IMG/VR virus record: IMGVR_UViG_3300021962_000022
Length of the DNA: 64,000 nt
Strand: one strand, 5' to 3'
DNA from: a virus
Taxonomy: Duplodnaviria; Caudoviricetes
Of the stretch, positions 37,900 through 53,521 are shown one piece after another; within the stretch, counting starts at the first letter, position 1, and the number at the start of each line of letters is the position of its first letter. The translations under genes were made by a program, and so were the position numbers. The notes under the pieces are model-generated. The model searched no databases. It had not been told where the DNA came from and saw nothing but the letters and a program-made list of their open reading frames with translations.

Positions 37900-38573
37900 T
37901 TGTAGGTAAAGGGTTAATATCATCCGGGTTTCAGTCATCAAAAAATGACTATACCAATTACATCATATTTGCATCAGGAGTTTCGAATTCAAAAGAAACG
38001 AATGATAGTGAATATAATCGTGAAAAAGAACTGATATTAAAAACCATAAATGAAAACAAACAATTAAAAATAATTTATTTTAGTAGTGTTTTAGTTGAAA
38101 CAACCAAAAATAAGTACTATCAAAACAAATTAGATATTGAAAATCTAATCAAAACTAATTCAGATAACTATATTATTTTTAGAATTCCTCAGGTTATTGG
38201 ATACAATGGAAATCCTAAAAATTTGTTCAATTTTATAAAAAATTCTATAGTAAACGAAACCGAAATAACAATCGATAAAAACATAGAAAGGTCTCTATTA
38301 GATATTGATTATTTGGTAGATATTGTTGATTACTGTAAAGATAAAGTATCTTGCGAGATACTGACAATTTCAGGTGTAAAAAAAATAAAAGTATTTACTT
38401 TATGTAATCTAATTGGTAAAATTTTAAATAAAAAACCTATTTTAAAAATAGTCGATGATGTCGAATATAAAAATTGGTTTACCAAAAACTCTAAGATTAT
38501 TAATCAATCAATAATCAATATCAATAAACTAACTTATTATGAAACTCTTCTAAAAAAATATATTTCTCAATGA
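37896..38573 (+). CDS. Short NAD-dependent epimerase/dehydratase-like protein
   Basis: IVGKGLIS, IFASGVSNS, YFSS, Y...K, IFRIPQVIG. Confidence 0.75.
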   Translation: MIVGKGLISSGFQSSKNDYTNYIIFASGVSNSKETNDSEYNREKELILKTINENKQLKIIYFSSVLVETTKNKYYQNKLDIENLIKTNSDNYIIFRIPQVIGYNGNPKNLFNFIKNSIVNETEITIDKNIERSLLDIDYLVDIVDYCKDKVSCEILTISGVKKIKVFTLCNLIGKILNKKPILKIVDDVEYKNWFTKNSKIINQSIININKLTYYETLLKKYISQ

Positions 38574-39337
38574 AAGTTATAACTTTAACATTCGCCTATG
38601 ATATAAGCAAATTATTTGAAATTGGTAGATTTTGGGCCAAAGATGTTTATATCGATAAAGATTTTATATCTGATTATTCTGCCGCATCTTATGCTACTTT
38701 TTTACATACAAATCCGGATTTACAACTTCATTTATATACCGATGACATTGATTTAATTAGAGAAAAATTAAACCAATACAATGTAAATTTAAAAAATGTT
38801 GTTTATCATGATTATTCTGAAAAATTAAAATCATATGAAGGTAAATTAAAATATAGTTTTGATATTTTACATGATTTTATTATTGAGCAGAGAAGTAATA
38901 GTGAATACACGGTTAAAATTGATTGTGATTTATCATTTCGTAACAAGATACCAATGATGGATAATACAAGTAAAGATATTTTAGTTTGGAAATATGAAAG
39001 AATGTTATTTAACGGTGACCCTAGAATGGGTGAAATTAAATCATCAACGTTAAGTGTTGGTAACATTAATTATAAAATATTTAATGTTGGCTTATTGGGG
39101 ATACCACCAACATTTGAAATCGATGAATTGGATGGTGTGTATCGAAAAATGTCCGACGTTAATATTATGGATGTTTCAGATATAAAAGTAAATTCTTGGC
39201 ATTGTGCTGAACAAACATCTAAAAATTGGATTTTTCATAAATACAATTACAATGTCATTGAATCATATAACTTTGTTAATCATCATTTTGAAACCAAAAA
39301 AAAATGTATCGATGACGCCAAATATTTATTAAAATGA
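38570..39337 (+). CDS. Putative GT-A glycosyltransferase
   Basis: LYTDD, KIDCD, FNVGLLG, AEQ. Confidence 0.55.
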   Translation: MKVITLTFAYDISKLFEIGRFWAKDVYIDKDFISDYSAASYATFLHTNPDLQLHLYTDDIDLIREKLNQYNVNLKNVVYHDYSEKLKSYEGKLKYSFDILHDFIIEQRSNSEYTVKIDCDLSFRNKIPMMDNTSKDILVWKYERMLFNGDPRMGEIKSSTLSVGNINYKIFNVGLLGIPPTFEIDELDGVYRKMSDVNIMDVSDIKVNSWHCAEQTSKNWIFHKYNYNVIESYNFVNHHFETKKKCIDDAKYLLK

Positions 39338-49724: not shown

Positions 49725-49963
49725 TATCTCACACTTTTTAGTGGGGTTTCCCAAAAAGATTTACGTTGCCATAGAGTTTTAAATAACTCAACAACAACCT
49801 TTGATGATAGGTCAACTATTCTTTCATCTACTGACCTAGCACCAATTTCTTTTTGTATTATTTTCATAACAATATTATGTGCTTGAGTGGTTTCAAGAAA
49901 GTCTTTCATTTCCTTTCTCGCGATTTTCTCAATTTCTTTTATGTCAGTATTTGATAAAGCCAT
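49724..49963 (-). CDS. Hypothetical protein
   Basis: 79 aa, coupled. Confidence 0.7.
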   Translation of the reverse strand: MALSNTDIKEIEKIARKEMKDFLETTQAHNIVMKIIQKEIGARSVDERIVDLSSKVVVELFKTLWQRKSFWETPLKSVR

Positions 49964-50508
49964 TATGCACTCATTCTATCTCTAATTAATGGCTCCATAG
50001 CCGTGATGAAAGTAGGTTCAAATTTTCTAAGTTTTTCCAACATATCCATTGTTTCATCATCAAGAAGTAACATATCACCATTTAGATATAAACCACTTCC
50101 CTCACCTGAAATTAATACAAAATTTATTTCTAAATCCGGTATCTCACCATCGAATCTGATTTCAGTTTCTGTTATGGTAATCCCTGGTTTCAAATTTGCA
50201 ATTTGTGAAACTTGTTGTCTAAAAGAATCAACTATTTGTGAAATACTTGTTTTTTCTTCTTGTTTCAGTTGGGTATCTTCTTTGTCCGTAGATAATAATT
50301 TTACGTCCACATCATTTACGACCTCAATATTGTCATATTGTTTCTTTTCCGCGGAATTGTCAACACTTTGTGTGTTATCAGTCGGTTGTTGAACCTCCTC
50401 TGTTTCTTCGGTAAGTGATTTTTTAGCGTATACCGTTTCATTAAGAGACCTTAATGTTTTCAACATACCTTTTATATCATCGTACCCTGTATTTTTACTA
50501 TTGTTCAT
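49963..50508 (-). CDS. Putative virion protein
   Basis: DIKGMLKTLRSLNE...LTEE; TATTTATA at 50551-50558. Confidence 0.7.
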   Translation of the reverse strand: MNNSKNTGYDDIKGMLKTLRSLNETVYAKKSLTEETEEVQQPTDNTQSVDNSAEKKQYDNIEVVNDVDVKLLSTDKEDTQLKQEEKTSISQIVDSFRQQVSQIANLKPGITITETEIRFDGEIPDLEINFVLISGEGSGLYLNGDMLLLDDETMDMLEKLRKFEPTFITAMEPLIRDRMSA

Positions 50509-51103
50509 TTTTAAAAATTAGTCTAAAATTAAATGATGGGTTTATATCTGTATAAATATTTGAGAAATTGGATTTACACACAACACCATTAAATTTAATA
50601 GCACTTTCTAAATATCCCTGAGAGGGTACAATTTGTTTTGGGATGTTATGTAAATCACAAATGTGTTCACATAGTTTGGATATTACCGATACTTGGTCAT
50701 CGTTATACTTGTCCCAGAAATAGTAGTTTCTCCAATTTCTAAAGAACGGTTCGCAACGATATGGGTCACCAATCCAATTGTGCATGAAACCGGTAACCGT
50801 GTTTTTATTCAACCAACCAAGATTTTCGACCGCAATCTTTATGAATTGCTTATCGATATATGGTTCGTCAAATGTATTTGAATAATAATTGGTGTCAAAA
50901 AGTTGGTAGACTGTACCTAACTTAGTTACAATAAAATGTGGAATTTCATCATACTTACCACATTTGCGGTATTTTAGTTTATTGATGAAATCGTCGGTTC
51001 TTCTACTTGTATCGTAAAGTAATATTTGACTTTTTTTCGTTTTCCGACGAACAACATTTAGAGTTTTACTATCTAAACCTTCTACGTTGTGTATTTCCAA
51101 CAT
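50498..51103 (-). CDS. N-acetylmuramoyl-L-alanine amidase-like protein (possibly inactive)
   Basis: PHFIVTKLGTVYQLFD, IAVENLGWL, DINPSF. Confidence 0.65.
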   Translation of the reverse strand: MLEIHNVEGLDSKTLNVVRRKTKKSQILLYDTSRRTDDFINKLKYRKCGKYDEIPHFIVTKLGTVYQLFDTNYYSNTFDEPYIDKQFIKIAVENLGWLNKNTVTGFMHNWIGDPYRCEPFFRNWRNYYFWDKYNDDQVSVISKLCEHICDLHNIPKQIVPSQGYLESAIKFNGVVCKSNFSNIYTDINPSFNFRLIFKNEQ

Positions 51104-51232
51104 TTCTAGTTAACTTTTTACTGATAACAGAAGAAATGTCGTTGTCTTCTGTATTATTTATTTCCGAATTGTCCGAACCATAGTTTTCCAACGAGTCCAC
51201 CTCTGGTTGGAATTCTTCTAATTTTTTTTTTC
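51069..51232 (-). other. Candidate -1 frameshift site plus 50-codon extension
   Basis: A10 run ending at the TAG of the upstream gene, 9-nt spacer, hairpin TTCCAAC-ca-GAG-gtgga-CTC-GTTGGAA; -1 frame open to TAG at 51071-51069. Confidence 0.65.
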
Positions 51233-52411
51233 TTCCTCATTGGGAAGTTCTTCTATTGGTTCGTCAATAACTTGTAGTTCTTCCACAACTTGTGGTTCAT
51301 CGATAACAGGTTCTTCGTTGTGTAAAGATATCTCTTCAGTGTATTCTTGTACCTCCGTTGGTGTTACAATTGTTTCTTCAACAATATGTTCTTCCTCAAC
51401 AACTTGAATTTCTTCTATTGGTTGCTGTGGTTCAACAACTTGTGGTTCTTCAATGACTTCAGGTTCATTGACCACTAACACCTGCTCAGGTTGTGGTTCT
51501 TCTATAACTTGTAGTTCATCAATAACAGGTTGTGGTTCTTCGATAATTTGAGGTTCCTCTATTACTTGTGGCTCTTCAACAATCTGTGGTTCTTCGATAA
51601 TTTGAGGTTCCTCTATTACTTGTGGCTCTTCAACAATCTGTGGTTCTTCAACGGGTTGAGGTTCCTCTATTACTTGTGGTTTTGAATCGTTATTTATTAA
51701 ATGGTCCTCAATCAAAAAAACATCATCAATTTCATTTTTATCCTCTTCTTCAGTAATTTCAGGTTCATTATCTTTAGGTTGTATATTTCTGTTAAGGTAC
51801 TTCTCAAGTAAATCTAAATCTTCCTGTTTTAATCTCACTCGAGAAACTTCACCCACAATATCTTTAGCGTCTACAACCGGTGTTTCTTCACCAACGGGTT
51901 CGGGAGATTCTTTCACCACAGGTATTTCCCCTACATTAGTGTTTTTTTCAGTCTGTGTGAATTTCACTAACATGTGTAAGAATGAAAGCGATATAATTGG
52001 TAACATACCTCCAGCGAAAAACGCTAAGAATCTCTTATGACCAACCATATCTGCAGGGTCAACACCAATGTATTCTAAGAGTGGTGAAACTAACTCAACC
52101 CAAGAGATAAACGCTTGACTTGTTATGTCTATATAAGAATACGCAAAATAAATGTTACCAATAAATTGAATCAAGGTAACAATACCAAATGGGAAGTAAA
52201 CTTTTTTTCCCATATCGGCAGAAATGGCAGCAAGTGCCGATAATGCGGCAATCTCAATACCGATTGAAAGGTAAATTGCCCAACTCAATGGGTTTGAAAT
52301 ACCATACCATTTAGTTACGTGTGAAATTGAAACTAATGCAACAGTTACAATCGGAATTAAAAACGCAGATATTATTAATGTTTTATAATTTTTACTGAAC
52401 CAATTTTTCAT
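51218..52411 (-). CDS. Multi-TM membrane protein with long acidic EEPQ-repeat tail
   Basis: About four N-terminal TM helices; (V/I)(I/V)EEPQ repeats. Confidence 0.8.
   Translation of the reverse strand: MKNWFSKNYKTLIISAFLIPIVTVALVSISHVTKWYGISNPLSWAIYLSIGIEIAALSALAAISADMGKKVYFPFGIVTLIQFIGNIYFAYSYIDITSQAFISWVELVSPLLEYIGVDPADMVGHKRFLAFFAGGMLPIISLSFLHMLVKFTQTEKNTNVGEIPVVKESPEPVGEETPVVDAKDIVGEVSRVRLKQEDLDLLEKYLNRNIQPKDNEPEITEEEDKNEIDDVFLIEDHLINNDSKPQVIEEPQPVEEPQIVEEPQVIEEPQIIEEPQIVEEPQVIEEPQIIEEPQPVIDELQVIEEPQPEQVLVVNEPEVIEEPQVVEPQQPIEEIQVVEEEHIVEETIVTPTEVQEYTEEISLHNEEPVIDEPQVVEELQVIDEPIEELPNEEEKKN
51531..51649. repeat. Intragenic tandem repeat, 54 bp x 2.2 (18-bp subunit)
   Basis: TGTGGTTCTTCGATAATTTGAGGTTCCTCTATTACTTGTGGCTCTTCAACAATC exact twice. 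Confidence 0.9.
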
Positions 52412-52695
52412 TTAATACTATTTTCCAACTTTGTTATTTCATTGTCAATTTGTGTTTGACGAGTTACGTCTAATATTTTTCTATCAGTCGCTTGAATCAT
52501 TCTTTTTTCAGATTTCAATCCTTCAATTCTCAATCTAACATCCATTTCTTCTTTTGTGTAAGTTGAGTCTTTGATTGATTCAATTTCTTTTCTCATTTTT
52601 GAGAGTTCTCTTCCGTCACCGCAACTTTTGAATAAACCTAAAAGTGCAATAACTAAAACGATAATTGTGAAATTTTTTTGAATAAAATTTTTCAT
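52408..52695 (-). CDS. Putative lipoprotein (spanin-like)
   Basis: Signal ending LGLFKSC, coiled coil; TATTTATA at 52710-52717. Confidence 0.6.
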   Translation of the reverse strand: MKNFIQKNFTIIVLVIALLGLFKSCGDGRELSKMRKEIESIKDSTYTKEEMDVRLRIEGLKSEKRMIQATDRKILDVTRQTQIDNEITKLENSIK

Positions 52696-52708
52696 GTCTT
52701 TTTTTTAT

Positions 52709-53521
52709 TTATAAATAGTTTAATAATCCGTAACTGTCGTTACGCAATTTCTTTAAAGCCTTATCACGTAGTTGTCTAATCCTCTCTTTAGTACAACCAA
52801 ACTCATCACCTAAATCCTCCAAGTTCATCTCAATACCATTTAACCCGTAAGATTTTTCAATAATTACTTTTTCCCTGTCATCTAATATCGACAACATCAT
52901 TGATACTCTTTTCTTGATTTCCTCAGCTGTGTTTAAGATATCTTCAGGGTTATCAGCGTTTACATTTATGATTGTGTCAATAAGTTGGTCTCCTTCTTCA
53001 TTAATCTCATCATTAAGGTTTACACAGTGAGGTAGAACAATTTCTGAACCATTGTCTTCATAGTTGATGAAGAATTGGTCGTCAGCAATTATTTGTTCAT
53101 TTTTTCTCCTCTTTTGATTTTCCTGAATGATGTTAGATGGTAAACGTATCATCCTTGAATTTTCATTCAATGATGCCATGATAGATTGTTTTACCCACCA
53201 AACAGCATAAGAAATAAATTTGTACCCACTGTTTGGGTCAAATCTTTCGGCTGCACGAATAAGTCCGATGTTACCCTCTGAAATCAAGTCAATCAAATCC
53301 ATACCATTATTTTGATAGGACTTAGCGACAGTGATTACGAAACGTAGATTTCCAACTACGAGTTCGTTAAGTAAATCTTCTTTTTGTTTCTTCGGGAGAT
53401 TCTTATTTTTTAGCTGTTCAAAGATTTCATCCTGTCTTTGGTGGGTGATTACCTTTATTTTGCGGATGTCCTTGATGTAGTTCTGAATTTCTTCAGTGTT
53501 GATTAGTAATGTTTTGGCCAT
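52709..53521 (-). CDS. Phage-encoded sigma-70 family RNA polymerase sigma factor
   Basis: NLRFVITVAKSY, DLISEGNIGL, ERFD...YKFISYAVWW, TKERIRQLRDKALKKLR. Confidence 0.95.
   Translation of the reverse strand: MAKTLLINTEEIQNYIKDIRKIKVITHQRQDEIFEQLKNKNLPKKQKEDLLNELVVGNLRFVITVAKSYQNNGMDLIDLISEGNIGLIRAAERFDPNSGYKFISYAVWWVKQSIMASLNENSRMIRLPSNIIQENQKRRKNEQIIADDQFFINYEDNGSEIVLPHCVNLNDEINEEGDQLIDTIINVNADNPEDILNTAEEIKKRVSMMLSILDDREKVIIEKSYGLNGIEMNLEDLGDEFGCTKERIRQLRDKALKKLRNDSYGLLNYL

Follow-up and report, generated by a model that had tools for sequence, protein, structure and literature searches.

Bacterial RNA polymerase slips efficiently at A/T runs of at least nine, and the RNA:DNA hybrid it holds is 9-10 base pairs (bp) long (PMC5009743). 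The consequences can be useful. Slippage is put to productive use in dnaX of Thermus (PMC5009743), and an A11 tract of Citrobacter gives rise to two length variants of TssM (PMC4256274). In a Roseiflexus IS630 element a stem-loop in the nascent RNA, adjacent to the slip motif on its 5' side, stimulates polymerase slippage (PMC5009743). One aspect that helps to tell slippage of the polymerase from slippage of the ribosome has been pointed out by Antonov et al. Orthologues that rely on transcriptional slippage need not share a frameshift direction, so that a single direction favours ribosomal frameshifting (PMC3711429). Here we describe a candidate slip site in the tailed-phage record IMGVR_UViG_3300021962_000022 (Duplodnaviria; Caudoviricetes), of which a stretch of 64,000 nucleotides (nt), the window, was analysed. 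The phage is a large freshwater one, and the site is a run of ten A's at the end of its gene encoding a membrane protein with an acidic linker of EEPQ-type repeats. Some form of programmed recoding very probably yields two isoforms of this protein. That the long isoform is made by RNA polymerase slippage at the run has, in our estimate, a probability of about 60%.

The run and the extension behind it

The open reading frame (ORF) for the membrane protein, at 51218..52411 on the minus strand, encodes 397 amino acids (aa) and finishes with the codons GAG GAA GAA AAA AAA AAT TAG. Joined to the frame that is open behind the run, it would give a long isoform of 447 aa. The elements of the site are as follows.

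51218..52411, minus strand: zero-frame ORF for the putative short isoform, 397 aa, C-terminus EEEKKN (ORF call and translation)
51222..51231, minus strand: A10 run, the putative slip site, with A_AAA_AAA in phase (T10 on the plus strand)
51218..51220, minus strand: zero-frame stop TAG, one codon 3' of the run (read from the sequence)
51069..51221, minus strand: -1-frame extension, 50 codons and a stop, ending in SSVISKKLTRNVGNTQRRRFR (open frame, coding selection and motifs)
51069..51103, minus strand: dual-coding stretch of 35 nt, where the long-isoform tail overlaps the beginning of an Amidase_2-like gene (ORF positions)

The -1-frame stop itself lies at 51069-51071 (minus strand). An earlier model-made note on the window, the original prediction, had described this ORF end, the A10 with its A_AAA_AAA, a 50-codon -1 peptide and the 35-nt overlap, and its description is exact on the minus strand. 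No other homopolymer of the 64-kb window is as long as the run or even reaches 10, and the chance of a 50-codon off-frame staying open, computed from base composition, is about 1.4%. Taken singly, these two figures are not compelling, and it is conservation in relatives that lifts the site above chance. KKK triplets in the other long ORFs of the window are broken by AAG in five cases out of five. The only other sense-strand run of at least nine inside a long ORF of the window is an A9, in frame at 39296-39304 (plus strand), 11 codons before the end of a gene at 38570-39337 (plus strand) in a sugar-operon region.

Relatives were gathered via the downstream amidase-like gene (28 loci) and via alignment of the membrane domain (80 loci), and the two sets together hold 46 distinct run-bearing sequences. 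The position of the run is unchanged in these, and its length is A10 in 40, A11 in four and A9 in two. AAG makes up 20% of the lysine codons elsewhere in the same genes, and there is no lineage in which it interrupts the run. The heptamer A_AAA_AAA is in phase in the window and in all relatives. In the out-of-frame majority of run-bearing loci, here called type I, the zero frame stops one to four codons 3' of the run. Relatives have 50-155 open codons in the -1 frame, and their +1 frame closes early. Every out-of-frame member requires a shift of -1, which equals one added A, and none requires +1; in five lineages the extension is in frame and the run retained. The A run and the extension, which the original prediction had seen in one genome, are conserved.

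Could the A10 be an accident at the level of DNA, that is, a homopolymer error in sequencing or assembly, a recent pseudogenising indel or a phase-variable tract? A10 tracts are indel-prone both in replication and in sequencing, and in rare lineages the extension is brought into frame by A11 or by one more T. However, dozens of assemblies, made independently of each other from different samples at different sequencing centres, have the identical A10. A10, stop and extension are all shared by the nearest record, a 43-kb IMG/VR contig with 97% identity over 2.4 kb. The A10 configuration is common to 13 IMG/VR haplotypes that are identical and to over 15 proteins that are nearly so, and no variation in tract length was seen among near-identical genomes at the consensus level. 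These proteins were assembled separately, agree in their N-terminus and all end in EEKKN. They are among the best 120 of 4,397 database matches to the membrane domain, and nearly all of these 120 have C-termini reading E-E-K-K-N or E-E-K-K-K and therefore stop directly after such a run. The worry that the tract might really be A11, raised in the same note, is not borne out by these many independent assemblies, which show A10. Moreover, the extension is under purifying selection even where the amidase-like proteins are only 56-65% identical, unlike a dead or rarely expressed segment. An origin at the DNA level is very improbable.

Several relatives have a second in-frame run of A8-A10 earlier in the acidic linker (codon 264 in L049, codon 255 in L058, codons 163-220 in L052/L053/L069), behind which either alternative frame meets a stop after a few codons. 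A slip at this second run would yield a still shorter isoform. The window has no second run of this kind. The EEPQ-type repeat region of the window (51420-51700, minus strand) differs from that of the 97%-identical locus L001 by 48 nt of in-frame repeat-unit indels, and the length of the acidic linker therefore evolves quickly.

The -1 frame has the properties of a real extension, as had been claimed. It is open everywhere, its ratio of nonsynonymous to synonymous substitution rates (dN/dS) is about 0.2-0.6 between divergent pairs, and it contains conserved motifs. One, LYWExDDxNPNQVIYDLENNxTIIP, occurs in relatives and is missing from the shortened version in the window; another, (K/R)K-x-x-x-RNVGNxxRRRFR, marks the basic tail of the relatives. 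By these comparative measures the extension is a genuine coding sequence under purifying selection. But does it have to be joined to the membrane protein? It might instead be translated on its own, as a small gene that starts for example at the GTG at 51200 (43 aa). In the window a GTG and a TTG lie 8 and 11 codons into the frame, and gene callers call ORFs of 41-124 aa here in many metagenomes. However, conservation does not extend to any start codon: an ATG is lacking from the extension in 36 of 46 loci, 15 of 46 lack ATG, GTG and TTG in its first half, and several type I loci have none at all. Independent initiation was rejected for that reason. In addition, the frame always opens exactly at the run, and in-frame fusions and a clade of short relatives (see below) show the tail to be the C-terminus of the membrane protein. 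A separate gene is scarcely credible, and even when it is combined with the DNA-level readings the sum stays small.

A profile of the extension run against 1.8 billion representatives found 76 clusters, mostly start-poor ORF fragments of 41-124 aa with a minority of fused proteins. In one metagenomic protein (P0180, 331 aa) the last ~40 residues of the extension (ENNKTIIP...VISRNVSTKRRNFR) end an unrelated Cys-rich repeat protein, which may be an assembly chimera or a recombinant.

A few lineages depart from the out-of-frame arrangement. The extension is encoded in the zero frame, with the run kept, in L027/L049, L058, L098/99, L030 and L111. L030 has A11, in a protein carried by three contigs, and L111 has A10 and one extra T. 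In four of these five lineages the loss of one A (or the gain of two) would produce a short form, with a stop one or two codons past the run; in L058 both alternative frames continue for at least 20 codons. In-frame homologues without a slippery site had been named beforehand as evidence that would speak against recoding, and these in-frame homologues all carry the run. A sister clade of shorter proteins (233-284 aa) has no A run and ends in frame with K-R-L-S-Y-T-R-R-N-V (or ...RRDA). This C-terminus spans the same amidase start as the tail of run-bearing members, and synteny also matches. The 35-nt overlap recurs in nearly all relatives, and in the short clade it is 8 nt. The tail of the long isoform is homologous to the in-frame C-terminus of the run-less relatives, which makes the long isoform, with its basic tail KKLTRNVGNTQRRRFR, the ancestral full-length protein. 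The run and the expanded acidic linker are then a derived feature that adds a tail-less form. Two C-terminal isoforms from a real, conserved recoding site, as originally proposed, are the picture to which these comparisons point.

Slippage of the polymerase or of the ribosome

How might both isoforms be made? In the scenario we favour, faithful mRNA would direct synthesis of the 397-aa protein, which ends at the stop one codon 3' of A10. The ten rA:dT pairs equal the RNA:DNA hybrid in length, and in part of the transcripts the polymerase of the host would slip on them and insert one extra A. A small hairpin in the nascent RNA directly behind the hybrid would probably aid the slip. Ordinary translation of the mRNA with the added A would then continue for 50 further codons to yield the 447-aa protein with its basic tail, and would stop 35 nt within the Amidase_2-like gene. 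We infer that the slip occurs at transcription rather than at translation, and likewise that both isoforms are needed.

Two structures near the run bear on this.

51186..51212, minus strand: downstream hairpin, -10.8 kcal/mol, z score -2.0, equalled by 8 of 200 shuffles
51232..51247, minus strand: 5' stem-loop CTTCC-CAATGA-GGAAG, candidate nascent-RNA slippage stimulator, -4.3 kcal/mol

The first of these had been noted before, as a stem of TTCCAAC/GTTGGAA with a 2-nt bulge, GAG/CTC and a 5-nt loop, 9 nt 3' of the run, and it is indeed present at 51186-51212. It had been taken to complete a canonical layout for programmed -1 ribosomal frameshifting, and that view does not hold, because the downstream stem is not conserved and the conserved structure is the one on the 5' side, abutting the run. 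Folding of the 60 nt 3' of the run in 46 loci gave a mean z score of -0.5, no better than shuffles. The downstream hairpin is lost in close relatives, as in L032, and even where the amidase-like neighbour protein is 92% identical. It was therefore rejected as a conserved stimulator.

The 5' stem-loop behaves differently. In the window its 3' arm ends on the base preceding the A run, and nearly every type I locus has a stem-loop in this place. The 3' arm abuts the run in 20 of the 31 type I cluster representatives and is at most 3 nt away in the rest. The stems differ by lineage: CTTCC/GGAAG in the window and, elsewhere, CTTTATCTG/CAGATGAAG, CATCATC/GATGATG, CAATTAACTC/GAGTTAGTTG and CTTCGTCA/TGACGAAG. 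The best terminal 5' hairpin averages -6.0 kcal/mol in the 31 cluster representatives and -2.76 kcal/mol at 310 within-gene control positions (Mann-Whitney p = 1.2e-9), with the reservation that the loci are phylogenetically related and such p-values overstate their independence. The in-frame loci L049 and L098 have almost no 5' hairpin. A run as long as the hybrid, preceded by a terminator-like stem-loop, is indicative of programmed transcriptional slippage.

The inverted repeat at 51232-51247 was also scored as terminator-like on the plus strand (stem followed by TTCTTCTATT), where there is no convergent gene. Terminator-like matches in the scan were near chance (3 found, 1.4 expected). An internal terminator in the 115-nt gap was rejected, since the sole terminator-like call was this opposite-strand repeat, at about chance frequency. 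No promoter-like site was found on the gene strand in the gap.

The same long isoform could also be made from unedited mRNA, by programmed -1 ribosomal frameshifting or by sliding of the ribosome on A_AAA_AAA. The heptamer is in phase in every relative, a zero-frame stop close behind the site could slow ribosomes, and in the window there is the modest hairpin 9 nt 3' of the run. Ribosomes are also known to slide along repeated AAA codons (PMC4363877). However, the downstream hairpin is unconserved, and the three A's past the heptamer are conserved although ribosomal slippage has no need of them. The conserved structure, which abuts the run on its 5' side, would sit inside the translating ribosome. 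Hairpins upstream of a slip site are reported to attenuate, not stimulate, -1 frameshifting. The Shine-Dalgarno-like GAGG is missing from many lineages, and it lies no more than 4 nt upstream. Finally, the in-frame variants could reach the short form with its immediate stop through the +1 frame only. A ribosomal origin of the long isoform is possible, but on this evidence we think it rather unlikely. The strict A10, the abutting 5' hairpin, the missing conservation of any 3' structure and the persistence of the run where the extension is in frame are, taken together, best explained by slippage of the polymerase.

Some observations do not sit easily with slippage of the polymerase. All out-of-frame relatives need -1 and only -1, which is the sign of ribosomal frameshifting according to Antonov et al. 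(PMC3711429). With A_AAA_AAA in phase in every phase observed, slippage of the ribosome is physically possible, and perhaps both processes contribute. The window's own 5' hairpin is weak, and 2 of the 10 control positions within its gene match its -4.3 kcal/mol. In two metatranscriptomes there are contigs over 51002-51141 and 51242-51420, and none bridges the run; a further RNA run had no match to the locus, and a raw-read DNA run did not contain the phage. DNA can be present in RNA libraries, so these contigs carry no claim of expression.

In the most ambitious version, which we consider doubtful, hairpin and A10 form a terminator-like, tunable slippage device long kept by a large clade of abundant freshwater T4-like phages. 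Slip efficiency, and with it the ratio of short to long form, would then depend on the state of transcription, which could include nucleoside triphosphate pools, elongation rate or the phage's adjacent sigma factor. Translation of the long form would deliver ribosomes onto the overlapping start of the amidase-like gene. The position of the long-form stop inside that gene would allow translational coupling, which is speculation. A single slip would thereby fix the proportions in which the parts of a membrane-tethered regulatory or envelope module are made. That flips between out-of-frame and in-frame arrangements are tolerated would imply near-balanced slippage, in the range of tens of percent.

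The membrane protein and its gene module

The protein consists of a membrane domain of four to five helices, a short conserved cytoplasmic segment and the acidic EEPQ-type repeat linker. Its N-terminal 150 residues are ~80% identical across relatives, and about 90 columns of the N-terminal domain are invariant in 19 diverse sequences. An AlphaFold model places helices at residues 2-35, 41-64, 68-93, 99-114 and 122-159, of which four are long and hydrophobic. Four membrane passes after a basic N-terminus would place linker and tail in the cytoplasm.

Directly after the last membrane helix lies the conserved segment DAKDIVGEVSRVRLKQEDLDLLEKYLN (51791-51871, minus strand; residues ~181-207). In the relatives P0120 and P0125 the same segment scores above the Pfam cut-off for TacA1, a family of ribbon-helix-helix antitoxins; the window's own protein has no TacA1 match at E <= 0.01. 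This hints at a possible membrane-tethered DNA-binding or dimerisation element beside a sigma-factor gene.

No Pfam family matches the protein, and the PHROG match is a weak one to a family of unknown function. A fold search of the membrane domain against the PDB found nothing at E <= 0.001, its Atlas neighbours are all unnamed viral clusters, and a nucleotide search against cultured phages gave no match. At the protein level the search for phage relatives yielded a single match, to an uncultured 462-kb phage with 31% identity.

The gene is part of a five-gene module at 49963-53521 on the minus strand, which encodes a sigma-70-like protein, a 95-aa membrane protein, the protein with four transmembrane segments discussed here, the Amidase_2-like protein and an acidic protein of 181 aa. 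Three of its genes are as follows.

52709..53521, minus strand: sigma-70-family gene, the first of the module (Sigma70_r2, Sigma70_r4)
52408..52695, minus strand: gene for a 95-aa protein with an N-terminal hydrophobic segment and a predicted helical remainder, syntenic in all relatives examined
50498..51103, minus strand: Amidase_2-like gene, 201 aa (PF01510, E = 7.7e-7, 29.9 bits against a cut-off of 26)

The module is syntenic in the run-bearing clade and in the run-less short clade, and neighbouring stops and starts overlap, including the stop of the 95-aa gene with the start of the membrane-protein gene. The Amidase_2-like protein has no sequence match to any solved structure. In L111 (protein P0125, 557 aa) linker, A10 and tail are joined to a different N-terminal domain of membrane and coiled-coil character. 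This gene lies directly 3' of the sigma gene and the separate 95-aa gene is absent there, an arrangement that suggests domain replacement or fusion.

What does the protein do? The original prediction had placed two isoforms of a membrane protein in a lysis region, a setting different from that of the tail-chaperone frameshift. The isoforms stand, through the conserved recoding site; the lysis region is not established. There is no match to a holin family, the protein is far larger than holins and the Amidase_2 match is weak. The neighbourhood contains sigma factor, ClpP, Rad50-like and Mre11-like genes and no evident lysis cassette. A holin/antiholin pair does not fit the size (397/447 aa against ~60-150), the absence of a family or fold match or an amidase neighbour just above the cut-off. 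Such a role is possible, but the protein failed every feature of membership that could be tested.

Likeness to known slip sites

In thousands of phage contigs from metagenomes this gene is split or cut short by gene callers, and recognition of the slip site restores a full-length protein with two intended isoforms. It also draws attention to a conserved module of five genes beside a phage sigma factor. Natural slip sites that combine a 5' stem-loop with a homopolymer are few outside insertion sequence (IS) elements and some bacterial genes. The family offers dozens of natural variants in stem, run length and frame state, and therefore a comparative series for slippage by bacterial RNA polymerase.

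The closest likeness is to tssM1 of Citrobacter rodentium and tssM3 of Yersinia pseudotuberculosis (PMC4256274). There, too, a poly-A tract directly precedes a premature stop in the gene for a membrane protein, extra A's appear in the mRNA and two length variants result, of which the long one is the canonical full-length protein. However, the tssM case involves A11 in a bacterial secretion gene and is experimentally proven (PMC4256274), whereas the phage site has A10 and a conserved 5' hairpin and belongs to a gene family known from sequence alone.

The dnaX genes of Thermus thermophilus (A9) and Chlorobi (A10) share a homopolymer about as long as the hybrid and alternative-frame stops close behind it, and they set the ratio of a short to a long product from one gene (PMC5009743; PMC3711429). 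In dnaX the genomic frame leads to the long product and slippage to the short one. Most phage members reverse this, and only the rare in-frame variants are alike.

For the 5' stem-loop the counterpart is the Roseiflexus IS630 element of Penno et al. (2015). There, a terminator-like nascent-RNA stem-loop lies directly 5' of the slip motif, the motif is T5C5, slippage deletes one base and there is a strict dependence on a GC-rich stem (PMC5009743). The phage site differs in that its A10 can, given its length, slip without help, and its stems are AT-rich and weak. Therefore, the phage hairpin may only tune the efficiency of the slip.

The ribosomal counterparts are the -1 frameshift of E. coli dnaX and the G/GT site of phage lambda. 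They resemble the phage site in their in-phase slippery heptamer, two C-terminal isoforms, fixed ratio and viral or compact genome. However, E. coli dnaX uses an upstream Shine-Dalgarno-like element and a downstream stem-loop, and a conserved equivalent was found for neither. What the phages use is a known trick, slippage on poly-A, in a new and previously unannotated phage gene family.

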